Assembly: GCA_963706765.1 (NCBI GenBank)
Contig: OY970168.1
Coordinates: 2,886,700-2,950,699, forward strand
Direction of reading: 5' to 3'
Origin: an uncultured Solirubrobacterales bacterium
GTDB lineage: Bacteria > Actinomycetota > Thermoleophilia > Solirubrobacterales > Solirubrobacteraceae
Length of the DNA: 64,000 nt
The notes below the pieces were generated by a model. It was not told the origin of the DNA. It saw only the letters and a list, made by a program, of their open reading frames with translations, and searched no databases. Shown here one piece after another: positions 10,850 through 46,770 of the stretch. Numbering within the stretch: position 1 is the stretch's first letter; each line of letters starts with the position of its first letter. A program made the translations under genes and the position numbers.

Positions 10850-12986
10850 TCAGCTGACGGTGAATGCGCTCGGGCTGCTGACGGTGCCGGTGGGAGCGCT
10901 CGTGTTGGTGACTGTCACAGTCCCGCTCTGAGCGCCTGCGGGGACTGTCGCCTTGAGCTTGCTCGAGGAGATCGAGGTCACGCTCACAGCGGGGCTGCCG
11001 GCGAAGCTGACGCTCGAGGAGCTGTTGAAGCCGAGCCCTTTGATCGTCACGACCTTTCCGGGTGCGCCGCTCGCGGGGTTCACGCGAGTGATCGACAGCG
11101 AGGGGGTGAACTTCGTCGGGCTCTTGGCGCTGCCGGAGGGGGTGGTGACGGTGATCTTTCCCGCGGCTGCGCCATTGGGGATGGTCGCTTCGATCGCTGA
11201 CGCCGACAGGACAGTGAAGTTCGCGGGTAGCTTGCCGATCATCACCTGGGTGGCGCCCGCCAGGCCGCTGCCTTCGATCGTCAGCTGCGCGCCCGTGATC
11301 GCCGCGGCGGGAGCGAAGCCGCTGATGTGCGGAGGGCCGGCCGCAGGGACGACCTTGGTCGCGGCTGAGACGGCCGGCGATCCTTCTCCGGAGCTGTCGG
11401 CCGCGATCTCCTGGACGCGCAGCGTCGAGGAGATGTCGGCTGTGGTGAGACTGTATGTCTGGAGGTTCGCGCTTGCAATCGGCTGGCAGGCGAGCCCGGT
11501 GGAGTTGCAGCGCTCCCACTGGTAGGAGTAGGAGCTCGGTTCGATGCTCCATTCGGCATGAGCCTCCGTGAGCGTTTCGCCCTGCTCGACCGTTCCGGAG
11601 ATAGTCAGCGGGGCGAGCTCAACGGGGGTGCCCGGAAGCGAGAACGCGCCCAGCCCGACCGGGCTGCCGACGCCCGTGGGCCCGTCATAGCCGGCGCCCG
11701 CCTTGCACTCGCTGGTGATACCGCAGCTGCCGTTGCTTCCAGACACGACGTCATAGAGCGCATCCGATTCGCCGAAATGGCCGTATAGGGTCGCCGCGGC
11801 ATGCGCGACCCCGTGCGAGCCGCCGGCGAGGGCGAACTCCGATGCGACGATCGGCGAGGACACCGAGGTGCCTCCCCAGACGCCCCAGCCGGTCGGGTCG
11901 CCGCGGCCGTCGGGAGTGCTGTCGTAGACGTCAACTCCCGTCTGCGGATTGCCGATCGCAGCGACATCGGCTACCGAGCGTGCGCTGGCGCAGCCCGTGG
12001 CGGAGAAGTCTGCGAGTTCGCTCTGCCACAGCGCTGCGGAGAACATCGAGCTGCAGCCGCTGCCTCCTTCGCCCCAGGCGGTGCTGGTCCAGGCACCGGC
12101 ATGTTCCTTGAGCGTCGTACCGCCGACCGCGACGACGTTCGGGGAGTCGGCCGGGAAGTTCGCGCCCACCGGGTCACGGCGGCAGCTCTCGTTCAGGTAG
12201 CCGCAGTCGCCCGAGCTCACCGTCACGACCACGCCGGGATGGTCGTAGCCGGGGGCGTCGGCGTTGTCGCCGGCAACCTCGGTGGCGCCATAGGAGTTGC
12301 TGATCTCGCTTGCTCCAGCGCTCGCGGCGGTGTCGACCGCGGTGCTGAGGTCGCTGAATTCTTCGCTGCTCGCCTCCACCAGCAGCACGTGGCAGTTCTG
12401 GCAGATCGCATGCGCCATCTGCACGTCGATCGAGATCTCCGTGTCCCATTCGCCCTGTTTTTGTGGCAGCGGGCTCGCGTTCCCATGCTCATTGACCTTG
12501 CGAAAGCAGCCATTCGCGCTCGTGCACGGGGGAAGTCCGAACTGCTCGTCATAGACAGCGAGGTCCGATTCGGCGGTCGGATCGTCGAATGCATCCACCA
12601 CCGCGACCGTCTGGGCCGCCGAAGGTGTCGTTTCGTTCGGCAGCGAGTAGGCGCTGTGCAGGCTCTGGGCAGTCAGGAATCCGGGCACAGGCGAGCCCTG
12701 CCCGACCGCGGGCCGCGTCCCGCGCGCGAGCGCCTGGGCGTCCCGTTGCGCTTCCGCGTTGCGCTGGGCTTCGGTCAGGGACGCGGGCAGGAGCCGCTCG
12801 GACAGGCACGAGGCGCCACCGGGGCGGATCGTCGTGCACAGACGCTGGAATCCGATAGGGCGCCGAGAACGAAGCGAGCGCCACGCTGGCGACGAGCACC
12901 GAGGCAGAGCACGCGAGCACCACAGCGAGCAGCGCCGGCAGCGCGAGCCGCGTCCCTGCGGTATGCCCGATCCTCCCTCTGTCCAC
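10850..12986 (-). CDS. Secreted S53 (sedolisin) serine protease with Ig-like and two IPT/TIG domains; probable 1-bp frameshift near 12850
   Basis: EISIDV (Glu/Asp), SSGD and GGTSVSSP catalytic motifs. The signal peptide (LALPALLAVVLACSASVLVASVALA) is in a different frame from the rest. Confidence 0.85.
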
Positions 12987-13165
12987 CGGGCCGCATCGTA
13001 GCGCCGCGGAGGCGGCCGGCTCGCAAGTTCGCGCGCAGCCCGACCGACATTCGAGGGCGTGAACGCACTCACTGCGCCCTCGCCTCGCGCGCGTTGAGGG
13101 CGCGAATGCGCCTCGGGCGCTCTCGCCTCTCGTCTCGCGCCTCTCGCCTCGCGCGTGCAGCCTCG

Positions 13166-27411: not shown

Positions 27412-28608
27412 TCAGTGCAGGAGGTCGAGGGCGTTTTCGGTGTCGTTGACGAAGTAGATGCCCTTGGACGTCGGCGTGACGACGAGGCCGAACAGGCCAC
27501 CTTCTTCGGCGCCGGTGTCGGCCGGCTGGAACTGTGACCCGGCGGGCGTCGTCTCGACGATGTTCCCGTCGCCCGCGTTGGCGGTGAGAATGTCGCCGTT
27601 CGGCGCGAACGTCATCCCGAGTGGGCTGTTGAGGAAGCCGCCTTGGGTCACCGTCTTTCCGGGCTCCTGCAGCGGCATCCTGCGGTGCAGCGCGTTGGGC
27701 ACCGCAGCGATGCGGTTGCCCTGTGTGTCAGCGACGTACAGGACGCCGTCCGATCCGAGCGCCACTCCGGTGGGGCCAACCACCAGCGCCGCTTCGTCCG
27801 TGCGCTCCGGGAACCCTTCGGCGATGACGGTCGGCGTCCCGACTTTTGGCAGGTGCCCCGGGCGGACGCTCAGGCGTATGCGCACCACCGTGCCCTCGTC
27901 GACCGGAGTTTCGCCCGATTCGACTGTGCCGTTGAGGACGTTGGTGACGAACAGGGTCGTGCTTTTTCCCTGCGACACCGACGTCATGTCCCAGGGGCCG
28001 TTTATCGGCGTCCCGGAGATCGTCTCGACCGGCCTGCCGCTGCTGTCGAGGACGATCAGGCATCCCGCCTGCGCCGTTTCCGCGGAGCCGTTCGTCGTCG
28101 GCAGGCTGCCAACCACGACATAGCCCTGTGGAAGCAGCGCCAGCGCAGTCGTCAGGCCGAGCCCGCCCGGGCAGGGACCTGGCAGCGTCGCGGGATCGAG
28201 TTCCGCGAACAGGGACGTGTGCCCGGAGGGCGAGATCTGCACGATCGTGGTGCCCGTGCCCTGTTCGTTCTCCTTGTTGTTGAAGTTGCTGACGAGGATG
28301 TCGCCGGCCACCAGCGAACCGCTGGTCGTCGACACGTTGACGATGCCGTAGGGGTTCAAGTCACCGTTGGCGGGCACGGTAGTGCCGACTTCCGTGACCT
28401 TGGTCAGGGATTCGAGAAACGGTTTTTCGCTCGCCAGCGCCGTGCTTGGCGCGATCGCGGCGAAAACAAGCAATCCTGCGAGCACTCCCAGGTAGCGTGC
28501 TCGCGCGCTCCAACGGAGCCTCGTTCGGGGATCGTGGGTATGACCCGCGGCGGCCGGCCGACGCTGCACCAGCGGCGTGGTCGCGGGGCGCTGAATGAGG
28601 TCTGACAT
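27412..28608 (-). CDS. Secreted NHL-like beta-propeller hypothetical protein
   Basis: GGAGG RBS; signal-peptide-like LGVLAGLLVFAAIAPSTALA; repeated NPYG/GPWD/GPTG/SPLG blade motifs; LYVADT. Confidence 0.7.
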   Translation of the reverse strand: MSDLIQRPATTPLVQRRPAAAGHTHDPRTRLRWSARARYLGVLAGLLVFAAIAPSTALASEKPFLESLTKVTEVGTTVPANGDLNPYGIVNVSTTSGSLVAGDILVSNFNNKENEQGTGTTIVQISPSGHTSLFAELDPATLPGPCPGGLGLTTALALLPQGYVVVGSLPTTNGSAETAQAGCLIVLDSSGRPVETISGTPINGPWDMTSVSQGKSTTLFVTNVLNGTVESGETPVDEGTVVRIRLSVRPGHLPKVGTPTVIAEGFPERTDEAALVVGPTGVALGSDGVLYVADTQGNRIAAVPNALHRRMPLQEPGKTVTQGGFLNSPLGMTFAPNGDILTANAGDGNIVETTPAGSQFQPADTGAEEGGLFGLVVTPTSKGIYFVNDTENALDLLH

Positions 28609-34530: not shown

Positions 34531-34567
34531 CGGCGGCGCTCGGTCGCTGGCCGCCGATCGGCCACAG

Positions 34568-34650
34568 TGCGGCGGGTGGGATTCGAACCCACACGCCCTT
34601 GCGGACAAGGCCTTTTGAGGGCCTCGCGTCTACCGTTCCGCCACCGCCGC
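34568..34650 (-). tRNA. tRNA-Leu(CAA)
   Basis: Cloverleaf: GCGGCGG acceptor, AGGCC-CTCAAAA-GGCCT anticodon arm, long variable arm, GGTTCGAAT; no encoded CCA. Confidence 0.95.
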
Positions 34651-34732: not shown

Positions 34733-35284
34733 CTAGGCGGGGGTGCCCTGGGCGCCCGCGTAGGCTCCGCCGGCGCCCGCGTAAGGGCCGCCCGCGCTGG
34801 CAGCCGGCCGCTCGAGCTCGACATTCCAGCCCTGGGAGAAGCCGCGCATCGCGAACGCGATCAAGAGCATCTGCACGGGGACGATCAGCAGCGTGATGAC
34901 CCCCAGCAGGCCGGCGTTGAGGGCCGGCTGCTCGAATCCGGTTTTGTCGCGATTGAACCAGGCCGGCCCTGCGACGAGGGCGAACACCAGCAGCAGCACC
35001 GCAAGCGCCGCCGATATCGGCAGCACGCCGCGGTTCCAGCGCGTCGCGAAGAACGCAAGCACGAGGTAGACGATGATGAACCCCACCTGGATGATCCAGG
35101 CGCCCTCGAGCACCTTCCAGCCGCCGACGGTCACGATCAGGACGAGCGCGGCGGAGACGAGCAGCAGCAGGACCACGGTCGCCCGGGTCGCCTGAACGAC
35201 GGGCTTGTCACGGTTGGGATGCGTGATCACGACAGGCCCCGAGGGCAGGTCGGACTCTGCGGGTGTGCGGCCACGTGAAGCCAT
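34733..35284 (-). CDS. Hypothetical membrane protein (about 4 TM)
   Basis: Four hydrophobic segments; lies between the two tRNA-Leu genes. Confidence 0.75.
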   Translation of the reverse strand: MASRGRTPAESDLPSGPVVITHPNRDKPVVQATRATVVLLLLVSAALVLIVTVGGWKVLEGAWIIQVGFIIVYLVLAFFATRWNRGVLPISAALAVLLLVFALVAGPAWFNRDKTGFEQPALNAGLLGVITLLIVPVQMLLIAFAMRGFSQGWNVELERPAASAGGPYAGAGGAYAGAQGTPA

Positions 35285-35348
35285 CGCAATCGATGACCAT
35301 ACAATCTCTGGCGGCCTTCGTGTGCATCCGCACGCGCCTTGGCCCGTT

Positions 35349-35432
35349 GCGCGCGTGGTGGAATCGGTAGACACGCCGGCCTTAGGAGCCGGTGGGCGTA
35401 AGCCCATGGGGGTTCAAGTCCCTCCGCGCGCA
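35349..35432 (+). tRNA. tRNA-Leu(TAG)
   Basis: GCGCGCG acceptor, CCGGC-CTTAGGA-GCCGG anticodon arm, long variable arm, GGTTCAAGT; no encoded CCA. Confidence 0.95.
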
Positions 35433-35637
35433 CCTGGGGCGCCGAACGCCAGGAGGCGCCAAGCGATGCGCCCCCGAGCGGCCCCCGAGTGAGCCCATCG
35501 ATCGTGAGGGAGCCCGGCGCAGGCGATCGAACCGCGCGGGCCCGCGCGCGGAGCCTGCGCGGCACGTTGGGTCGGGGCGGAGGTCGTTTCCGCAACCCGA
35601 CCAGGGGCGTCGGCTGCACGAGGCGCGAGCGGCTCGG

Positions 35638-37926
35638 CTATTCGCTGAAGTTGCTCGGTGGCGCGGTCACGCGCTCGAGTTTCCAGGTGGTGCTGGTCGG
35701 CGTCAGGAAGCTCGGCGGCTGTTTGTTGAGCAGCCGTTCGTCGTAGTTGTAGTTCTTTAGATAGCCGTGTCCGGCCGCGGTGCCGACAGGGCCACGCCAG
35801 TACTGCGCAATCGACCCCCACACGGTCAGTTTGCCTAGTTTTGCGCCGCACTGGTAGTTGTCGACGATGAACGAGTGGTGCGTGCTGAGGATCGCAGCGT
35901 CGATGATCGGTTCGCTCAGCGCGGTGCCAAGTTCGTTCGGGTCTCCGTTTTCCGCGTTTTCAGCGTCGCATTTCCCGGGTTTGTCTTCGTATTCGCATTT
36001 GCCTTCGCCGAGATACTGGTCGGAGTTGGCGCAAGCACCGCACTTTTTTTCGCTGGCGCTGAATTCGCTTTCTTTGCATTTCCCGCATTTGCCTTCTCCG
36101 AAGTACTGGTACCCGGCCGTGCAGCTCGTCTTGGCGCACTTTTTTTCACCAGACCGGTATTCGTAGCCCGATTCGCACGTTGTACTGATGCATTCTCCAG
36201 TTCCGGAGTTGAACGTGTATCCGCTGTTGCAGGTCGTGCTCAGGCATTTCTTGCTGCTTTCGATGTATTCATAACCGGTGTTGCATTTCGCACATTTGCC
36301 TTCGCCGAAATAGGTCGTCCCGGTCGCACACGAGGTTGAGCCGCACTTTTTTTCGCTCGAGATGTATTCATAACCGGTGTTGCATTTGGCGCATTTGCCT
36401 TCGCCGAAGTACGTGCCACTGGAGCACGTCTTGCTGTAGCAGGTGCCCCCGTACGATTCGTATTGGCTACTCGGGGAGCACGAGCCTTTGGATTTCGTCA
36501 CGGTCTGCGTCGACAGCGTCGGCGTCAGTCGTGTGGGCGGGGTTGAGGTCGAGAGCGTCGGTTCGACGCTCGTCGGGATGTAGCTGGCCGGATTCTTGGT
36601 TTCGCTGGGTGAGAGGGTGGGAAGATACGGAGTGGTCGTCAATTCGACTGGGTGATATAGCCGTACGAAGTTCGTCGCGATCAAGCCGAGCGTAGCCGCA
36701 CCTTCGGGTTCTCCAGCCGACGTACCGCCGACCGTCGTCGTCGTTATGTTGCCATTGATGATCACGTCGTTTTCAGCCGCTATCGTCAGCGATTCCGTGT
36801 ATGTCCCGCTGACGTAGACGTTTCCGCACCCCGTGTCGCCAGCGTAGTTCGAGTTGAACGGCGTGTAGGTGATGCCGCAGCCAATGGCAGAGTTGTTTGC
36901 GACGTAGATTATGCCGCTCGCGGGGAAGTTTTTCGTTTCCGGCGCGGACGCGCCAGCGCTGGTGAATTTGGTGATGGTGATCGTGTTCGGCGTACCGGAG
37001 TGAAGCACCAGCTCGGTCTTGCCAGTGAACGTGTAGCCCGCGATTTCCGAGAGTTCGCTGTCGGTTTCGGGGGGGTTGAGTTCTTCGCCATTTTCTGTGT
37101 ATACGCCATTGTTGTTGTAGCTGTTGCTGCAACCGCCTGCGGCGTAGGTGCCGCCATTGATTTCGATTTTGTCTTTTTTGCCGGGACGTCCGAATGTCGG
37201 TTTGGAGCCAGAAGTACCGCACACCTCGGAGGCGTCATCGGTGTGAAGCGGGCCTTTGACTTCGTCTTCGGACGCAAACTCGATCGGGATGCACCATTCC
37301 GACAGGTACTTTGTTTTGCCGTTGAAGGTGTATTTCGTCGTTTTACGCGTCGCGTAGAACTGTTCACACTCTGCCGTGGGCAGCGCTTCGGACGCTGGGA
37401 AGTCGGCTGGATCCTCGACCTCGTAGCGGGTGAAGTAGACGTAGTTGAGGAAACCGGGGTGATCGAACGTGGCCACGAGCGTGCGCGTCTCGTTGCCGGA
37501 GGTCCCGGTCGACTCGATGCGGAATGTGCCCGAAGCGGAGCTCGAGCTGCCCTCGATGATCGCGTACTGTTTCTTTTCCTTGCACTGGGCTTCGGTGTAG
37601 CCGGTCGAGTGCAGCGTCTTGACGGCGTAGCTCTCGTCGCTCGTCTGTGGTACGGCGGTTTTTTCGATCGCGGGGCACGAGGACCAGTAGTTCGGTTCCT
37701 TGTTGAGGTGGTACTTGTACGCCGAGATGCCAGCCAGCGCCGCGTAGTAGGCCTTCTTCTGTTCGGTATCTGTCTTGGTCAGGCGCACGTCGTCGTTCGT
37801 CGCGATGAAGATTGCGGCAACTATGAGAGAGGTGATGAACATGACCATCAGCGCGATGATCATCGTGAACCCGCGCTCGTCGCGGGCGCGGCGTCGGAGC
37901 CGATCGATTAGGCTTGTCATTCGCAT
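35638..37926 (-). CDS. PilX-like type IV minor pilin / pilus tip protein with Cys-rich insertion
   Basis: Class III signal RDERG|FTMIIALMVMF (no Glu5, typical of PilX), FRIESTG...RTLVATF alpha/beta region, C-terminal GSIAQYWRGPVG...YNYDERL. Confidence 0.85.
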   Translation of the reverse strand: MRMTSLIDRLRRRARDERGFTMIIALMVMFITSLIVAAIFIATNDDVRLTKTDTEQKKAYYAALAGISAYKYHLNKEPNYWSSCPAIEKTAVPQTSDESYAVKTLHSTGYTEAQCKEKKQYAIIEGSSSSASGTFRIESTGTSGNETRTLVATFDHPGFLNYVYFTRYEVEDPADFPASEALPTAECEQFYATRKTTKYTFNGKTKYLSEWCIPIEFASEDEVKGPLHTDDASEVCGTSGSKPTFGRPGKKDKIEINGGTYAAGGCSNSYNNNGVYTENGEELNPPETDSELSEIAGYTFTGKTELVLHSGTPNTITITKFTSAGASAPETKNFPASGIIYVANNSAIGCGITYTPFNSNYAGDTGCGNVYVSGTYTESLTIAAENDVIINGNITTTTVGGTSAGEPEGAATLGLIATNFVRLYHPVELTTTPYLPTLSPSETKNPASYIPTSVEPTLSTSTPPTRLTPTLSTQTVTKSKGSCSPSSQYESYGGTCYSKTCSSGTYFGEGKCAKCNTGYEYISSEKKCGSTSCATGTTYFGEGKCAKCNTGYEYIESSKKCLSTTCNSGYTFNSGTGECISTTCESGYEYRSGEKKCAKTSCTAGYQYFGEGKCGKCKESEFSASEKKCGACANSDQYLGEGKCEYEDKPGKCDAENAENGDPNELGTALSEPIIDAAILSTHHSFIVDNYQCGAKLGKLTVWGSIAQYWRGPVGTAAGHGYLKNYNYDERLLNKQPPSFLTPTSTTWKLERVTAPPSNFSE

Positions 37927-38750
37927 GGCAGATTCGCCGCTTCCGCTTCGGTGCTGGACGGGTCATAGCGCAGGACGACCGAGTCGCTGAAGGCGACGGT
38001 GCGGTCGGCGCGCGTATCGCTGCTGCTCGGCGCCTGGGTGAAGCTGATCGAGACCTTCGCGAGTTCGTTTGCCACCGTTTGGGCTTTTTCGGCGGTCGAC
38101 TGGCCCGAGGGCAGTTCGGTGCTCGACAGGGGGCCCACGAGCTGGCCGAAGGTGGAGCCGGAGGTGTGTTCGTAGCGGTAGTACTGGAAGATGGTGTCGG
38201 CGCTCGAGACCTGAGGGGCGATCACGTTCGTTGCGAGCACGTGGACGCTCGCGTTAGCCACCTTCGGTTCGGCGAATTTCCAGTTCGGCGCCGAGCCGCT
38301 GCCGGTGAATTGGTAGTCGGTGAGCGTGCCCAACCGCTGGCCGGTGTTGCTCGTTTCCGTGTAGGTCCAGTTGATGTCGTGCTCGGTCACGGCCGTAATG
38401 GCGGCGGCGCCTGCCGTGGAGTTCCCGTAGGCGCTCAGAAACCAGAGGTTCGTGGCGCCCGTCGCGGCGAGCGGAGAGGTGGGTTTTACGCTCGGGCCCT
38501 GGATTGCGTACGCGCCGAAGCCGGTGCAGCTGGAGTGAAGCGGGTCGATGATGCTGCTCATCGCCGAGCGGCCCACCTGGTTGGCTTGCGCCGCGTCGGT
38601 GATCCTGGTCTGTTGGCGCAGCGTGACGTCGAGGATCGCGAGCAGCGCGCCGGTGACGACGACGCCGGTCGTCATCGCGACCAGCAGTTCGATCATCGAG
38701 ATGCCCCGAGCGTCGCGGAGGCGGTGGACGATTCGCGAGAGGAGCGCCAT
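37917..38750 (-). CDS. PilW-like type IV minor pilin
   Basis: Class III signal RDARG|ISMIELLVAM with Glu5; ATG overlaps the upstream stop. Confidence 0.85.
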   Translation of the reverse strand: MALLSRIVHRLRDARGISMIELLVAMTTGVVVTGALLAILDVTLRQQTRITDAAQANQVGRSAMSSIIDPLHSSCTGFGAYAIQGPSVKPTSPLAATGATNLWFLSAYGNSTAGAAAITAVTEHDINWTYTETSNTGQRLGTLTDYQFTGSGSAPNWKFAEPKVANASVHVLATNVIAPQVSSADTIFQYYRYEHTSGSTFGQLVGPLSSTELPSGQSTAEKAQTVANELAKVSISFTQAPSSSDTRADRTVAFSDSVVLRYDPSSTEAEAANLPCE

Positions 38751-40366
38751 CAGCACGTCCCCGATTTGCCCGCGCCGAGGTAGATCACGCCGTAGCCTTC
38801 TTTGGTCGTCCCGCTCGTGCTCGGCTCGGTGCTCGGCCCGGCGCCGGTGTTGTTCGTGAATTTGAATGTGGCCTTTTTGCTCGAGCCGCTGATCATGCCG
38901 CTGACGCAGAGTTCCCATTCGCCGAACGGCTGGTTCTGGTATGTGAGGTGACCTTGAGGATTGAGAGGCTGGTAGTGGACGTAGGTGGGTGAGGGGTTGT
39001 TCACCGGCGCCTGTTCGCTGAGACACTTGGTGTTCGTCAGGGACGCGGTCCCTGAGGTGAGCACGACGCCTTCGTTGCCTGAACCCGCCGCGGTGCCCGT
39101 GTAGACGACTATCTTGACCGGTGGGACCACGAGCTTTTTGCTGGGTGCGACGGTGCTACCTGGGTTCACCTGGGCGGTCGGGTCGGAGTACGCTTCGCCC
39201 GTTTCCGTTTTGTATTCTTCGACATACTTGCTCTGCGAAGCGGGATCGTTGGCGACGCAATCGCCGGCATATGCCGTGTAGGGATTCGCTTCTGCAGGAG
39301 TTCCCGGCTTCACGAAGGGAAACAGCGTTTTGCTCGAGCTCACGGTGGTCAGGTAGTTGGCCGACGCCAGCGCCGCGGATGTGCTGACCGTGCCCTCGAG
39401 GTCGCGCGAGGGCGCCGCCGTCATGCCCGTCTGCAGCGCGACGAACGTCTCGCCAGGGCTGGGTGAGCCAACGCTCGAGAATTCCGCCGCGATCGCGCCC
39501 GGTTCGCCGATCTGGTAGGTCTTCGACGTCGTGGCTCCCGAAGACAGTTTCACGACATCGGAGCTCGGCGTTTTGCCGTTGACTTCGACCCACCCGGTTT
39601 TGGTTGCCAGGACGGTCACTTCGCTCGCTGCGATCGCCCCGAAGATGACGCATCCCGACGCTGGCGTGATCCGCGAAGGCAACCCTGTCGCGGTGACCGT
39701 TGCGCCCGCCACCGGTTCCTTGTTCTGGTTGATGACCTTCACCAGCAGGGCGCGTCCGATCGGGGCGCTGAGGATGCTCGATTGGCTCACGGGGGGACGG
39801 CTGCCGAGCGTCGGCCACGTGACCGACGAGGTCGTCTGGATGTAGTCGGCTGACCCGCTGCTGCTTTCGCAGGCGAGTGCGGCGCCGGTGGTGCTTTCCG
39901 AGGCGGTCACGTATTCGGCGGAGGAGCTGACCGTGTAGACGTTGCCGGTGTAAGCGACACCCGAGTAGCCGCTGTACTTGGCGTATTCGGTGGCCTTGCA
40001 CGGAGTCGCGGGTTCTTCGGCTTCTTTCGCTTCGAGCTGAGCCTTGGTCGAGTTGATGTAGCGCCAGCTGCTGCCCGACTTTTCGACGCACAGACCGTTT
40101 TCGGCGAGCGTGTGCGAGGAGCTGCCCATCTGGCCGAGCTGCGCCGCCGTGAGGCCGTGCAGGCGCTCCTCGTCCTGCTGTGCGATGACCGTCGCCTGGT
40201 TGTGCGCGCGCTCGTCGAAGGTGGTGCGATTGGTCGAGTCGATCCCGCTGAAGGTCGCCACGGCGATCAGCGCGACCAGCAGCGCGCTGATGATCACCTC
40301 GAGCAGCAGAACGCCGTCCTCGGAGGACGGCGGCGGTAGCCTTGAAATCAATGTCGCAATCATCAC
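38750..40366 (-). CDS. Large PilV-like type IV minor pilin with extended C-terminal beta domains
   Basis: SEDG|VLLLEVIISALLVALIA prepilin motif with Glu5; QQDEERL helix. Confidence 0.8.
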   Translation of the reverse strand: MMIATLISRLPPPSSEDGVLLLEVIISALLVALIAVATFSGIDSTNRTTFDERAHNQATVIAQQDEERLHGLTAAQLGQMGSSSHTLAENGLCVEKSGSSWRYINSTKAQLEAKEAEEPATPCKATEYAKYSGYSGVAYTGNVYTVSSSAEYVTASESTTGAALACESSSGSADYIQTTSSVTWPTLGSRPPVSQSSILSAPIGRALLVKVINQNKEPVAGATVTATGLPSRITPASGCVIFGAIAASEVTVLATKTGWVEVNGKTPSSDVVKLSSGATTSKTYQIGEPGAIAAEFSSVGSPSPGETFVALQTGMTAAPSRDLEGTVSTSAALASANYLTTVSSSKTLFPFVKPGTPAEANPYTAYAGDCVANDPASQSKYVEEYKTETGEAYSDPTAQVNPGSTVAPSKKLVVPPVKIVVYTGTAAGSGNEGVVLTSGTASLTNTKCLSEQAPVNNPSPTYVHYQPLNPQGHLTYQNQPFGEWELCVSGMISGSSKKATFKFTNNTGAGPSTEPSTSGTTKEGYGVIYLGAGKSGTC

Positions 40367-40678: not shown

Positions 40679-40749
40679 GGGGGACTGGTGTAGTGGTAAC
40701 ACGGCGGTCTCCAAAACCGCAACTCGAGGTTCGATTCCTCGGTCCCCCG
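40679..40749 (+). tRNA. tRNA-Trp(CCA)
   Basis: GGGGGAC/GTCCCCC acceptor, GCGGT-CTCCAAA-ACCGC anticodon arm, GGTTCGATT; no encoded CCA end. Confidence 0.95.
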
Positions 40750-41021
40750 CTCAAGGAGGCCCGGTAGATCCAGGCTTTTCCGCTTTACAGAGCGGGATTA
40801 CGGGGTCACGTCCGGCTCGGTGGGGTTCCTCATCGAGCCGCTGGAATTGGCTGATCTGGCGGTCATATCCCGACTCGGCTCGCATCGGAGGGCGCCACGC
40901 TCGAAGGGGCAGCGGCAGATCAACAAAGGGCTCTGCATGCTAATCTTCATAAATCCAATCAAGAAACACGAGATTGGCGTCCACGCAGCGGTTGGCGGAC
41001 GCTCGGAGACCGACAGGAGCT

Positions 41022-43527: not shown

Positions 43528-44019
43528 TTATGGCTGCGCTGCGCCGAGCGGCGGCGCGGCGGGCTCGGACCTGTCAGCACGCATCTCGGCGCGCGTCCTC
43601 GCGTCGATGTCGCCACGAAGGAAGCGCCAGGTCGAGAGAATCACGAGCACTGTCATCAGGATCGCGCTCGACACGCACCACTCACAGATTTTGTGCAGCG
43701 TGAAGACCTCGCGGTAGGTCAGGTAGAGGCTGAATCCGAAGCCCCCGAGCGTCAGCGCGGCGGTCGCGAACCTGGTTGTCTCGTTTTCCCGGACCAGCAG
43801 CGAGCCGAGGATCACGATGTAGCCGATCAGCCCGATCAGCGCCACCGGCACGCCCGCCAGCTCGGAATAGCGCGATTTCTGAACCTGGCTGCAGGGGTTG
43901 CCCTTGATCGAGCAGGGGGGCGTCGTGCCCGAGTAGTGCAGGTAGGTCAGGTAGGCCGCAAGGCAGAGTCCAATGGCCGAGAGCACGATCAGCACCACTC
44001 TGAGGCTCTTCTGGCTCAT
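43528..44019 (-). CDS. Vitamin K epoxide reductase (VKOR) family protein
   Basis: Loop Cys pair CSIKGNPC, YSELAGVPVA, CEWC active site. Confidence 0.93.
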   Translation of the reverse strand: MSQKSLRVVLIVLSAIGLCLAAYLTYLHYSGTTPPCSIKGNPCSQVQKSRYSELAGVPVALIGLIGYIVILGSLLVRENETTRFATAALTLGGFGFSLYLTYREVFTLHKICEWCVSSAILMTVLVILSTWRFLRGDIDARTRAEMRADRSEPAAPPLGAAQP

Positions 44020-44023
44020 GGCG

Positions 44024-44857
44024 CTAGCCCTTGAGGTGCTTTTCGATCGCTTCGTTGAACGACGTCGGGTCCGTAAGCGACGCGTAGGTGAGCTTCGAGA
44101 GTTCGCCCCCGGTCTTGCCGATCGTGAACGACGGAGTGCCCGTGAACCCGTTGTTGTTCGCAGCCTGCGCGTCGGCTTCGACCTGGTTGTTGAAGGCCGG
44201 ATCGCTGCGGTCGCTCGTCCACTGGGTGAGGTTCAGGCCCGGCACCTGCTGCGCCAGCCCCTGAAGGTAGCTTTCATTGACATAGCCGCTGTCCTCTTCT
44301 CCCTGCTCGTGGTAGAAGAGCTCGACGAACTGCCACATCTTCTGCTGCTTACCCGCCGCCAGCGCGGCGACCTGTTGGGTTTTGAAGATTTCCGGTTCGC
44401 GCGTCGCGGTCTCGAGTGAGCGGTATTCGACCTTCACCTTGCCGCTGCGCACCCATTGCTGAACGATCGAGGGGAACGCGCCGAGCGTGAACTCCTTGCA
44501 GATCGGACACTCGAGATCGCCGAAGTACTGGATCGTCACCGGCGCGTTGGGGTTGCCGAGGGTGTTGCCTTTCTGGGGTATGCCGCCGACCGCCTTTTCG
44601 ACTTCGGCGACTGTCTTGTTCGCTTCTTTGGTTCCCGGGGCGACCTTCTTGCTGCTGCCTCCGCCCGTCGCTACGAGGATCACGACGACGACCACGACCA
44701 CCGCTGCGAACGCGCCGCCGAGCAGCGTCAGGCGTTTGCGGCGCGCAGCGCTCGCGGCGTGTTCTTCCTCTACCGCCTTGCGCTCCGCTCGGGCCTGCTC
44801 GCGACGCTGCTTGCGGGTCAGGTTGGTCTCGTCGTCCTCCTCCACCGAACTGCTCAT
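44024..44857 (-). CDS. dsbA: Membrane-anchored DsbA-family thiol-disulfide oxidoreductase
   Basis: One TM anchor, GNPNAPVTI, DLECPIC, GTPSF (cis-Pro loop). Confidence 0.9.
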   Translation of the reverse strand: MSSSVEEDDETNLTRKQRREQARAERKAVEEEHAASAARRKRLTLLGGAFAAVVVVVVVILVATGGGSSKKVAPGTKEANKTVAEVEKAVGGIPQKGNTLGNPNAPVTIQYFGDLECPICKEFTLGAFPSIVQQWVRSGKVKVEYRSLETATREPEIFKTQQVAALAAGKQQKMWQFVELFYHEQGEEDSGYVNESYLQGLAQQVPGLNLTQWTSDRSDPAFNNQVEADAQAANNNGFTGTPSFTIGKTGGELSKLTYASLTDPTSFNEAIEKHLKG

Positions 44858-44975: not shown

Positions 44976-45049
44976 GCCCCCGTAGCTCAGCTGGATAGAG
45001 CATCGGATTTCTAATCCGAGGGTCCCAGGTTCGAATCCTGGCGGGGGCG
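44976..45049 (+). tRNA. tRNA-Arg(TCT)
   Basis: GCCCCCG acceptor, TCGGA-TTTCTAA-TCCGA anticodon arm, GGTTCGAAT; no encoded CCA. Confidence 0.95.
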
Positions 45050-45147
45050 CTGAGGTCCGAACCGGGTCCGCGGACGTCGGCGGACGCCCGCGCTCCATCT
45101 CTGCGCGCGGGCGCTCCATCTCCGATTGCGCCTACTCTGCGAGCTTG

Positions 45148-46077
45148 ATGGGCGACCGTCCTGCAGAGCCGCGCGGCGATCAGATCCTCGAGGGCGAGAA
45201 CCTCGCGCTGCTGCCGCGGTTCAGCGACGGGCTGTTTCAGCTCGTGTACATCGACCCGCCCTTCAACACCGGCCGCCTGCAGTCGCGCAGGAGCATCAGC
45301 ACAGCGCGCGATGAGCGCGGCGATCGCACCGGGTTTCAGGGGCGCCGCTACAGCACCCGCCTGCTCGCCGAGTCCTCCTACCGAGACTCCTTCGACGACT
45401 ATCTCGCCTTTCTCGAGCCCCGCCTGCGCGAAGCCCGCAGGCTGCTGGGCCAGGAGGGGACGCTGTACTTCCACATCGACTACCGCGAGGCCCACTACTG
45501 CAAGCTCCTGCTCGATGAGATCTTCGGGCGCGAGTGCTTTCTGAACGAGATCGTCTGGGCATATGACTACGGGGCCCGCTCGAGCCGCCGCTGGCCGGCC
45601 AAGCACGACACGATCCTCGTCTACGTGCGCGATCCCGAACGCTACTGGTTCGACTCGAGCGCAGTCGATCGCGAGCCCTATATGGCGCCCGGTCTGGTGA
45701 CGCCCGAGAAGGCCGCCCGCGGCAAGCTCCCGACAGATGTCTGGTGGCACACGATCGTGCCGACCAACGGTCGCGAGAAGACCGGCTATCCGACGCAGAA
45801 GCCCGAGGGCATCGTCCGCCGGATGGTCCAGGCCTCGACACGGCCCGGCGACTGGTGCCTGGACTTCTTCGCCGGCAGCGGGACGCTGGGGGCGGTCGCT
45901 GCGCAGCTGGAACGCCACTTCGTCCTGATCGACTCCAGCCCCGAGGCGGTCGCAGTAATGCGCTCGCGCCTGACAGCCGAGCGCGATCAGCGGGACGGCG
46001 CGGACGCCGAGCGCGCGGGCGATCGCCAAGACGGCGCGGACGCCGAGCGCGCGTCCTCGCCGGGCGCCGCGGCCTGA
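45148..46077 (+). CDS. Site-specific DNA methyltransferase (N6A/N4C, beta order), no cognate nuclease nearby
   Basis: YIDPPF (motif IV) precedes YPTQKP and LDFFAGSGT (motif I). Confidence 0.93.
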   Translation: MGDRPAEPRGDQILEGENLALLPRFSDGLFQLVYIDPPFNTGRLQSRRSISTARDERGDRTGFQGRRYSTRLLAESSYRDSFDDYLAFLEPRLREARRLLGQEGTLYFHIDYREAHYCKLLLDEIFGRECFLNEIVWAYDYGARSSRRWPAKHDTILVYVRDPERYWFDSSAVDREPYMAPGLVTPEKAARGKLPTDVWWHTIVPTNGREKTGYPTQKPEGIVRRMVQASTRPGDWCLDFFAGSGTLGAVAAQLERHFVLIDSSPEAVAVMRSRLTAERDQRDGADAERAGDRQDGADAERASSPGAAA

Positions 46078-46128
46078 CCCGCAGACCCCGAGCGCCATGC
46101 AGCCTCGGGACATGGCAGCCTTCGACTC

Positions 46129-46650
46129 GTGTTCCACATCGAGCTGCGCCAGTTTCCGCACAACGCCTGGCGTTTCAACCTCAGCGAGGGCGAGCTGTTC
46201 GCGGCAGTGCTCGAGCCATGGCTGCGCGACCAATGGATCGAGCTCAGCGAACGCAAGTGGAAAGCCGACCAGGCGCGGCTGACGGTGCTCGAGGGACCGA
46301 GCCTCGCGGTGCAGCAGCTCTCGATGGGACGCGGCTGGCGAAACGCCGAGCGCGAGAGCACGGACGTCACCGAGCAGGTGATGGCGCAGGCGCGGGCACG
46401 CGTCGCCAGCGCCGGCGCGCAAGCACACGCCCTGGCGGGCCCGGGCCCGGGCCCGGGCGGGGCGAGCCCGCTCGCCGGCGGGCAGGCAGCCGGCGTGCAG
46501 GAGGAGGTGAGGCGAGCGCTGATCATGCTCCTCGGCAACGATCCCGAGGCGCTTCTGCAGGCCTGGCAGCTCGCTGCAGGTCGGCGTCCCGAGCTCTCTC
46601 CGAGCGAGTGTCTCGCGCTCGCCGAAAGAACGCTCCGATCGCTCGGTTGA
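46129..46650 (+). CDS. Hypothetical protein
   Basis: Protein-like ORF between the MTase and tRNA-His (HIELRQFPHNAWRFNLS...). Confidence 0.7.
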   Translation: MFHIELRQFPHNAWRFNLSEGELFAAVLEPWLRDQWIELSERKWKADQARLTVLEGPSLAVQQLSMGRGWRNAERESTDVTEQVMAQARARVASAGAQAHALAGPGPGPGGASPLAGGQAAGVQEEVRRALIMLLGNDPEALLQAWQLAAGRRPELSPSECLALAERTLRSLG

Positions 46651-46688
46651 GCGCGCTGGGGCGCCGCTAGACTCCGACTGCGTCACGT

Positions 46689-46762
46689 GGTGGGCGTAGC
46701 TCAGCTGGTAGAGCTCCTGGTTGTGGTCCAGGCGGTCGGGGGTTCGAGTCCCCTCGCTCACC
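46689..46762 (+). tRNA. tRNA-His(GTG)
   Basis: G-1:C73 pair, GTGGGCG/CGCTCAC acceptor, CCTGG-TTGTGGT-CCAGG anticodon arm; no encoded CCA. Confidence 0.95.
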
Positions 46763-46770
46763 CTCACAGA

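Follow-up and report, generated by a model that had tools for sequence, protein, structure and literature searches.

In ComZ of Thermus thermophilus, a DNA-binding pilin that has been argued to be a tip pilin, a beta-solenoid interrupts the pilin fold ahead of the last strand (PMC6561018). The cyanobacterial PilX has an equal architecture, in which PilX carries a solenoid (bioRxiv 10.64898/2026.02.12.705559). The general concept of modular type IV pilins is exemplified by PilB and PilC of Streptococcus sanguinis, which bear a vWA module and a lectin module, respectively (PMC8179133). A type IV pilus owes its binding specificity to the minor pilins at its tip, and the pili of the Thermoleophilia, which are abundant and largely uncultured soil actinobacteria, are little known. 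Here we analysed 64,000 nucleotides (nt) of contig OY970168.1 from an uncultured Solirubrobacterales bacterium (hereafter the window), which encode a ComZ-like minor pilin of 762 amino acids (aa) in the open reading frame (ORF) at 35638-37926 on the minus strand; all residue numbers refer to this ORF. One loop of this putative tip pilin is a slot for interchangeable, length-tunable repeat modules, and one of these modules, a predicted rod of hairpins, is found in no database. With a rough probability of 0.55, we propose that the pilus displays this disulfide-stabilised hairpin rod at its tip, where it would contact ligands or set the reach in adhesion. The figure is an overall one, the structural statements being rated higher and the function lower.

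The gene is the last of three pilin genes, and the parts of the operon and of the protein are as follows.

38750-40366, minus strand: first gene of the operon, a minor pilin of 538 aa with the prepilin motif G/VLLLE and Glu at +5; leader read from the translation.
37917-38750, minus strand: second gene, a minor pilin of 277 aa with the motif G/ISMIE and Glu at +5; start mapped; weak N_methyl, PilV and ComGE matches.
35638-37926, minus strand: third gene, the insert-bearing minor pilin of 762 aa, a putative tip pilin that is PilX/GspK/ComZ-like by its homologs, its AlphaFold2 model and a Foldseek match to ComZ.
37699-37926, minus strand: leader (aa 1-19, ending in DERG) and hydrophobic N-terminal helix (aa 20-76), with Ile at +5; from the sequence and from model helices at aa 17-42 and 54-76.
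36646-37698, minus strand: beta-strands of the pilin domain (about aa 77-157), then a solenoid-like, beta-rich domain (about aa 158-427), containing eight conserved Cys; predicted local distance difference test (pLDDT) mostly >90, and ComZ match.
36481-36645, minus strand: Thr/Ser/Pro-rich tether (aa 428-482) with three PTLS repeats; from composition, low pLDDT and a length that scales with the array.
35995-36480, minus strand: ten C-x10-12-C beta-hairpins (aa 483-644); from Cys parsing, both AlphaFold2 models and alignment with nine orthologous arrays.
36229-36426, minus strand: the two most similar 99-nt A-B units of the array (33 aa and 4 Cys each; aa 501-533 and 534-566), the duplication noted earlier.
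35968-36033, minus strand: putative ancestral hairpin C632-C644 (QYLGEGKCEY) and invariant C653, part of the core and not of the insertion; C632 and C644 near-invariant.
35641-35967, minus strand: C-terminal core (aa 654-762), resuming at IIDAAILS, with invariant C693 at 35848-35850; from invariant columns and high pLDDT at aa 670-730.

The 762-aa protein begins with RRRARDERG followed by FTMIIALMVMFITSLIVAAIFIA, that is, a short charged leader ending in Gly and then a hydrophobic stretch. This motif is conserved in its homologs, and the protein is predicted to be processed as a prepilin and built into a filament. The residue at +5 is Ile and was hydrophobic in 73/73 homologs from genomes and Glu in 0/73, whereas the 538-aa and 277-aa partner pilins keep Glu5. 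Loss of Glu5 in GspK-type pseudopilins is a mark of the first-assembled subunit at the tip. The 615 homologs found all came from Solirubrobacterales/Solirubrobacteraceae-type metagenome-assembled genomes (MAGs). PilX_N (PF14341) matched the protein with 16.6 bits (E 0.0077), under the Pfam gathering threshold of 25.5 bits; a PF14341 match is precomputed in four homologs, and JGI often labels homologs PilX or PulG. A match to the NCBIfam T2SS_GspK equivalog (E 0.0077) was also sub-threshold, with 15.8 bits against the 130 needed.

An AlphaFold2 model of the full protein, built on 47 homologs (pLDDT 78), opens with an N-terminal helix and four pilin strands, after which a beta-rich domain at aa 160-427 is modelled with confidence (pLDDT >90). 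These are followed by a low-confidence linker, a run of short hairpins at aa 505-645 (pLDDT 66-82) and a confident C-terminal sheet. When this model was searched against the PDB with Foldseek, the sole significant family was ComZ (6QVI chains A-C; E 1.6e-7 to 4.6e-6, probability 0.99-1.0, ~535 aligned columns), a match under which the protein is a pilin whose fold holds a large beta-solenoid, inserted ahead of the last strand(s) (TM-scores 0.14-0.21). The family sequence profile reached ComZ in a PDB sequence search at E 0.45, which is not significant. A preliminary description of this DNA, made from its letters alone, had called the protein a PilX-like pilin and placed its Cys-rich part at the pilus tip. 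The former is borne out by the prepilin leader, the helix, the naming of homologs and the ComZ-like fold; the latter agrees with the missing Glu5 together with that fold, which suggest that the protein is a tip (first-assembled) minor pilin. The sequences on either side of the insert, LGLIATNFVRLYHPV and PIIDAAILSTHHSFIVDN, resemble consecutive rungs of the solenoid, suggesting that the insert is a loop of the solenoid and not a domain junction.

The region described earlier, a Thr/Pro linker followed by a domain with 21 Cys, corresponds to aa 428-664 and holds 21 of the protein's 30 Cys, with nine in the remaining 591 residues outside the array. Thr, Ser and Pro together make up 60% of the linker (aa 428-482, 55 aa), which includes three PTLS repeats; the array (aa 483-653) comprises 171 aa with 21 Cys (12.3%). 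FVRLYHPV lies at aa 420, IIDAAILS at aa 674 and Y[FL]GEGKC at aa 506, 539, 608 and 638; in all, aa 428-664 contain five CxxGYx[YF], four KKC, three PTLS and four Y[FL]GEGKC motifs. The linker, the 21 Cys, every motif listed in the preliminary description and the resumption at IIDAAILS are thus present in the ORF. Two AlphaFold2 models, of the full protein and of the array alone (the latter with pLDDT 63.6), both placed one beta-hairpin between each Cys pair.

The array is rich in Tyr, Ser, Gly, Lys and Glu. Its Lys content (11.7%), the DNA-binding ComZ as the nearest solved structure, and weak GspK and HpsC-type pseudopilin matches would fit a competence- or secretion-type filament, either with a ComZ-like DNA receptor or as a pseudopilus for polysaccharide export, in which the array aids the capture of DNA or polymer. 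However, the array as a whole is neutral (21 Lys+Arg vs 20 Asp+Glu, pI 7.4) and the core is acidic, the likeness to ComZ is one of fold only (~11% identity), and no com genes or secretion genes were found in the window. We consider such a filament quite improbable. DNA binding through charge was considered separately and is unlikely because the array is neutral.

The array DNA contains a repeat of 72 nt at 83% identity and a 99-nt period (36244-36315 and 36343-36414), with weaker copies of its 33-nt core at five places. The duplication had been reported as about 48 bp long with a 99-bp period and taken as recent; it is real and longer than stated, and its recency did not hold. The complete 99-nt units share only 68/99 nt (31% divergence), with 9 synonymous and 8 non-synonymous codon differences, which rules out a recent duplication and suggests that the duplication in the window is old, with both copies under constraint. 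The DNA repeat is far beyond chance, and both the grammar of the hairpins and the 99-nt period were found again in orthologues.

To follow the insert in relatives, homologs were anchored on the conserved flanks and the segment between them was extracted from the top 120 proteins and from 76 species-level genomes. Across the 76 genomes the insert ranged from 22 to 442 aa and contained 1, 3, 5, 17, 21 or 33 Cys. Inserts of the 1-Cys class have 22-31 aa and those of the 3-Cys class 33-53 aa, some with extra modules; the minimal 3-Cys loops of 30 genomes consist of the presumed ancestral hairpin and the equivalent of C653 (e.g., ...KYVGSGKCEY...C). In the 5-Cys class a 50-60-aa module (...TGLxxGxEVxGTGIxxGTTI...LSK) is present once or in up to about eight copies. 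Cys arrays are of two types, type a with the YxGEGKC / CxxGYEYxSSEKKC pattern (the window and loci L001-L006) and type b with the CPxGYTLxNKKCTxKVxEE pattern (L007 and L011). Such arrays occur in ~9/77 genomes (~12%) and in 15/120 top proteins, and most homologs carry other, non-Cys-rich modules. The homolog alignment therefore supports the earlier view of the Cys domain as an insertion insofar as the array is missing from most homologs, but its last YLGEGKC hairpin (C632-C644) and C653 belong to the conserved core. Nor is the array the sole insertion in a protein that is constant elsewhere, the site being a hotspot of cassettes.

A neighbour-joining tree of the core alone interleaved array-bearing genes with 5-Cys genes and other insert types. 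In loci L005 (a 21-Cys array) and L036 (GTGI modules), both from genomes of sample MFD00008, the N-terminal cores are 94% identical and the flank DNA is 88% identical, whereas the inserts are unrelated and the DNA alignment ends exactly at the insert. Because near-identical cores hold unrelated inserts with the alignment breaking at the insert, this pair represents a cassette replacement, and the site is a hypervariable cassette hotspot. The C-terminal cores of L005 and L036 are only 77% identical, which suggests that the recombination tract reaches downstream of the insert. A silent-cassette donor for gene conversion was sought, but neither the window nor, in related loci, the DNA up to 8 kb from the gene contained another copy of the array. 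As for copy-number variation in populations, only two soil metagenomes held 5-7% of the gene's words, too few for read placement.

Three further observations concern the relatives. The full pattern of the 5-Cys module is TGLxxGxEVxGTGIxxGTTIxxxK...LSKAAK, in 1 to ~8 tandem copies of 50-60 aa (e.g., L028:8001-10832, L020, L022 and L026). The precomputed Pfam field is empty for homologs with this GTGI module, the module itself not having been scanned. Nearly all loci are labelled Solirubrobacterales; L079 is labelled Actinomycetes only, and L024 (CAVRRP010000025.1), with 50% identity and the three-pilin arrangement kept, comes from a bin labelled Candidatus Eremiobacteraeota. L024 and the Solirubrobacteraceae locus L030 have almost the same insert, and L024 is probably a mis-binned contig.

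The turnover of cassette type and length among close relatives, with unrelated repeat modules filling the equal site, might also be expected of an array without a ligand of its own. Such an array would be a variable-length spacer or shield diversified against pilus-specific phages or predators, or a tip plug, a role that has been proposed for the solenoid PilX (bioRxiv 10.64898/2026.02.12.705559). However, the Tyr, Gly and Lys positions of the array are strongly conserved across orthologues at 43-58% identity, and the duplicated units, which differ by 9 synonymous and 8 non-synonymous codon changes, keep 22/24 residues in their 24-aa core at only 83% DNA identity. The retention of these residues argues for constraint beyond the Cys scaffold, and an array that serves purely as spacer or shield seems unlikely to us. 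It should be noted that the two roles, shield and adhesin, are not mutually exclusive and can coexist.

The type-a arrays follow a common grammar, given here with spacer lengths in brackets. A cap hairpin, C-S/T-P-x-S-x-[WY]-E...C[4], is followed by n x A[2]B[4] and then by A[2]B'[2]A[8]C, where A is C-x2-G-x-(T)Y-x-G-E-G-K-C and B is C-x-T-G-Y-E-Y-x4-KK-C. The A[2]B[4] unit spans 33 aa, or 99 nt, with 4 Cys, and its copy number n varies; type-a arrays accordingly have 17, 21, 25, 29 or 33 Cys, each one more than a multiple of four (4n+1), in line with the earlier suggestion that the domain is extendable. The order in the window protein is the cap, three A-B pairs, and then A, B' and the putative ancestral A; a peculiarity of this protein is that the third A-B pair has a 4-residue junction (ISTT), not the usual two residues.

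Near-identical internal units were found in some homologs, with three in P0006 and several in P0002 and P0121. In the type-b locus L007 (9278-9766), 60-nt array repeats and 33-nt tether repeats (EKTLEQAPTVK) have 87-100% DNA identity, which indicates that array and tether co-expanded recently in type b. Expansion is thus lineage-specific and recent in places. In an alignment of 47 sequences, C632 and C644 were near-invariant and C653 and C693 invariant. Since the minimal 3-Cys loops are this same C632-C644 hairpin, the array grew by duplication of a hairpin that already existed in the core, and its hairpins are paralogues of one that most homologs have.

The distribution of Cys points to pairing within the protein. 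Total Cys is even in 117/120 of the top homologous proteins and in 73/73 mature proteins from genomes, where the N-terminal core has 8 Cys in 69/73, the C-terminal core has 1 Cys in 65/73 and the insert has an odd number in 73/73. Seven of the eight N-core Cys (C84, C115, C187, C212, C236, C350 and C367, not C266) are invariant in the 47-sequence alignment. C653 presumably pairs with C693, because in the 1-Cys class they are the sole insert Cys and the sole C-core Cys, and both are invariant. In the simpler homologs the insert acquires its Cys two at a time (1, 3, 5); because the 3-Cys class adds exactly one hairpin, its two Cys would pair with each other, and the A hairpins would by homology be self-closed. 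The B hairpin fits the pattern C-x2-G-[YF]-x-[YFL]-x(4-6)-C, a pattern shared by the hairpin of cEGF and the A1 module of TNFR, each a hairpin closed by a single disulfide. The even Cys counts and the invariance of C653 and C693 therefore point to disulfides rather than metal sites, and the claim that the domain is disulfide-rich is well supported by Cys parity.

Next to each other and ~3 kb from the pilin operon lie a VKOR-family gene (43528-44019, minus strand) and a gene for a DsbA-like thioredoxin (44024-44857, minus strand), the actinobacterial disulfide-forming pair. This neighbourhood is present in ~20/80 related loci, and its link with a pilin for which 15 disulfides are predicted may reflect function or coincidence.

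The preliminary description had named metal binding as the alternative. With four Cys per 33-aa unit at CxxC and Cx4C junctions, the unit could be read as a Cys4 knuckle of a metal-binding (e.g., Zn) module; the protein has four CxxC junctions, and the sub-threshold Pfam matches among ten orthologous arrays include small Cys-rich families, some of them zinc-binding. On the other hand, CxxC occurs at only 4/9 hairpin junctions of the window array, one A-B pair here has Cx4C (ISTT) where CxxC is expected, and in type-b arrays the spacers are eight residues long and CxxC is absent. Furthermore, Cys are added pairwise in the simpler homologs, His and Asp ligands are not conserved, pilins are extracytoplasmic with VKOR and DsbA encoded nearby here, and zinc-ribbon families or structures were never matched in the Pfam, PDB sequence and Foldseek searches. 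We therefore regard a metal-binding module as very unlikely and keep to disulfide-closed hairpins.

The tether gave an indication of how the array is arranged. In the twelve type-a arrays, tethers of 49, 54, 68, 78 and 86 residues accompany arrays of 135, 163, 205, 237 and 259 residues. Tether and array lengths are correlated with r = 0.987 (n = 12) and r = 0.996 (five size classes), and the slope of 0.30 amounts to ~10 tether residues per 33-aa unit. Tethers also have tandem repeats of their own, namely PTLS in the window, SSTTASPTTY in L001 and the Glu/Thr/Pro-containing EKTLEQAPTxK in type b. Because tether length scales linearly with array length, we infer a stiff array that stands out from the core like a rod, with the tether running back along it in extended form. 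By analogy with TNFR and EGF rods, its length is estimated, as an order of magnitude, at ~10 nm.

In the mechanism that we propose, the protein is the tip minor pilin of a type IV filament, and the C653-C693 loop on the surface of its core, which would be closed by a single disulfide in minimal homologs, is the cassette site. The ancestral Y-x-G-x-G-K-C hairpin in this loop would have been duplicated in this lineage together with a second type (C-x2-G-Y-x-Y-x4-KK-C) to give a tandem array of ten hairpins. Each hairpin would be closed by its own disulfide, as the C-terminal hairpin of EGF and the A1 module of TNF-receptor repeats are. The ancestral hairpin and the C653-C693 bridge would hold the C-terminal end of the array on the core, and from its N-terminal far end the extended, possibly O-glycosylated Thr/Ser/Pro tether would lead back to the solenoid. 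The earlier picture of a Cys domain on a Thr/Pro stalk is not upheld: the array appears to be anchored at its C-terminal end, with the Thr/Pro segment as a return tether that tracks array length, so that the geometry is probably the reverse. The Tyr/Lys/Glu/Ser-rich rod would be shown at the pilus tip as a ligand-binding or reach-extending part in adhesion, and since species differ in the cassette they carry and in its number of repeats, specificity or reach would vary accordingly.

Several points weigh against this proposal. None of the results points to a ligand, and the protein is known from the sequence of an uncultured MAG alone. Genes for pilus machinery, a major pilin or a prepilin peptidase were not found in the 64-kb window. 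The Foldseek TM-scores to ComZ are low, and AlphaFold2 gives the array only moderate confidence, with pLDDT 66-82 when the whole protein is modelled and 63.6 when the array is modelled alone. The correlation between tether and array stems from five size classes of related sequences, and the four CxxC junctions (C512/515, C545/548, C614/617 and C629/632) formally permit metal binding.

If the rod is a ligand-binding element, the locus would offer a simple natural system for the evolution of pilus specificity and reach. The rod would also provide a compact scaffold, stabilised by disulfides and adjustable in length. A wider reading, which we put forward tentatively as a possibility, is that the loop between the last solenoid rungs is a dedicated specificity cassette site of Solirubrobacterales pili. 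Whole modules, either of the two kinds of hairpin rod or GTGI modules in 1-8 copies, would be swapped between lineages by recombination and resized by tandem duplication, with the tether co-expanding, as a counterpart of the exchangeable, receptor-binding tips of phage tail fibres; the rod would then be a bacterial TNFR/EGF-like ligand-binding invention, independent of eukaryotes.

The surroundings of the gene are conserved. The 277-aa gene starts with an ATG that overlaps the stop codon of the 538-aa gene, and the three pilin genes are translationally coupled. Their order is kept in 79/80 related loci, where both upstream pilins are conserved and much of the housekeeping neighbourhood likewise. 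Because the trio and its housekeeping surroundings are conserved in relatives, the operon is a stable chromosomal locus and not an island. The 538-aa pilin is unusually large and has a weak CarboxypepD_reg-like stretch (PF13620, E 0.0036, below the cut-off), a fold that PMC8179133 counts among the modules of modular pilins, and this protein may be a second modular pilin of the tip complex.

The tRNA genes around the pilin operon are the following.

35349-35434, plus strand: tRNA gene near the pilin operon.
34567-34650, minus strand: tRNA gene near the pilin operon.
40679-40750, plus strand: tRNA gene near the pilin operon.

Among the flanking tRNA genes, tRNA-Trp lies upstream of the operon and tRNA-Leu(tag) downstream. 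Since the tRNA-flanked locus is syntenic in relatives, an integrated element is disfavoured. The tRNA-Leu gene overlaps the 5' end of a mechanically called ORF for a membrane protein (34733-35407), which probably starts further in. Horizontal transfer as the cause of the low G+C content of the pilin gene (58% vs ~70%) was considered and found unsupported, the drop coming mostly from amino-acid composition and the locus being syntenic in many relatives; the G+C content at third codon positions (GC3) is 0.75 in the gene (0.67 in the array) compared with 0.79-0.89 in its neighbours. Elsewhere in the window, the region 44976-46763 between the tRNA-Arg and tRNA-His genes holds a gene for an N6/N4 DNA methylase (45145-46077) and an ORF of 173 aa without annotation (46129-46650), and it may be a small inserted element. 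Other putative surface proteins are a 740-aa protein ending in IPT/TIG domains (10850-13072, minus strand) and a 398-aa NHL-repeat protein (27412-28608, minus strand).

Comparison of the array with known families gave sub-threshold matches only. Pfam and NCBIfam searches with the whole protein and with the array stayed below the cut-offs, and for the array no Pfam model reached half its gathering score. The best Pfam matches among ten orthologous arrays were TNFR_ELAPOR1_6th (13.7 bits, cut-off 33.2) and DUF4215 (13.4-13.8 bits, cut-off 27), and none of the ten arrays matched furin-like, VSP or EGF families. A PDB sequence search with the array gave no match, and Foldseek with the array-only model (pLDDT 63.6) gave nothing better than E 0.12; RANK, CD40, 4-1BB, R-spondin Fu1-Fu2, Pvs25 and laminin EGF appeared at E 0.29-3.5 with probabilities of at most 0.23, along with beta-spiral fibres, all non-significant. 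An exhaustive HMMER search with the array against 1.84 billion representatives returned 43 proteins at E<=1e-3. Only three of these are true relatives (P0001, which is the query's own entry, P0006 and P0121), all pilins of the same family; the others are unrelated proteins built from a generic hairpin, C-P-x-G-[YFH]-x-[LWM]-x(5)-C-[VI], and several of these proteins match cEGF, DUF4215 or the C-terminal CBM_14 hairpin in Pfam. Outside the window's pilin family, the search thus found no 33-aa A[2]B[4] super-unit bearing the Y-F-G-E-G-K-C hairpin. Literature searches found no work on Solirubrobacterales pilins or on Cys-repeat pilins. The statement that the array is unlike described bacterial pilin domains stands, as no Pfam family, solved structure or described pilin domain matches it significantly.

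The preliminary description had likened the repeats to furin-like, growth-factor-receptor and VSP-type domains. The array shares with cEGF (PF12662), the TNF-receptor A1 module, furin-like repeats and the bacterial DUF4215 or Myxococcus-type repeats (PF13948) the hairpin motif C-x2-G-[YF]-x-[YFL]-x(4-6)-C and, as predicted, the stacking of small hairpins into a long form, but its disulfides would lie within single hairpins. Furin-like and full EGF domains, by contrast, have an interlocked disulfide pattern. What held of the earlier comparison is a resemblance to generic single-disulfide hairpins; no significance threshold was reached in Pfam or Foldseek, and an assignment to the TNFR, EGF or furin-like families was accordingly not accepted as proven. 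The likeness to eukaryotic Cys-repeat rods thus appears to be generic, one of a general kind of structure and not of family.

Like GspK, the protein lacks Glu5, is the last of a minor-pilin set and has an extra domain in the pilin sheet; GspK caps its filament (discussed in PMC6561018). However, it scored only 15.8 bits against the GspK cut-off of 130, and the GspK insert is alpha-helical. An actinobacterium is expected to be monoderm and without a classical type II secretion system. With ComZ and the cyanobacterial PilX, the protein shares being encoded beside other minor pilins and a proposed position at the filament tip (PMC6561018; bioRxiv 10.64898/2026.02.12.705559). It differs from ComZ in sequence (~11% identity) and in that ComZ has no Cys-rich array, Thr/Pro tether or reported cassette site. 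Moreover, ComZ binds DNA and acts in natural transformation, whereas the window protein shows no pointer to DNA.

As in the modular pilins, a module is grafted on a minor pilin, here for putative tip display, and the diversity of such modules has been seen as evolutionary tinkering (PMC8179133); EGF, furin and TNFR-type terms are absent from a part of the supplementary text of that paper. The modules of S. sanguinis follow the pilin domain via a short linker, whereas the module described here is nested in a loop of an inserted solenoid and is a tandem hairpin array undefined in Pfam. If our proposal is right, the concept of the modular pilin would be widened to nested, repeat-based modules. 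ComZ/PilX-like modular tip pilins are known; what is new is a nested module of predicted disulfide-hairpin repeats in a hypervariable site.

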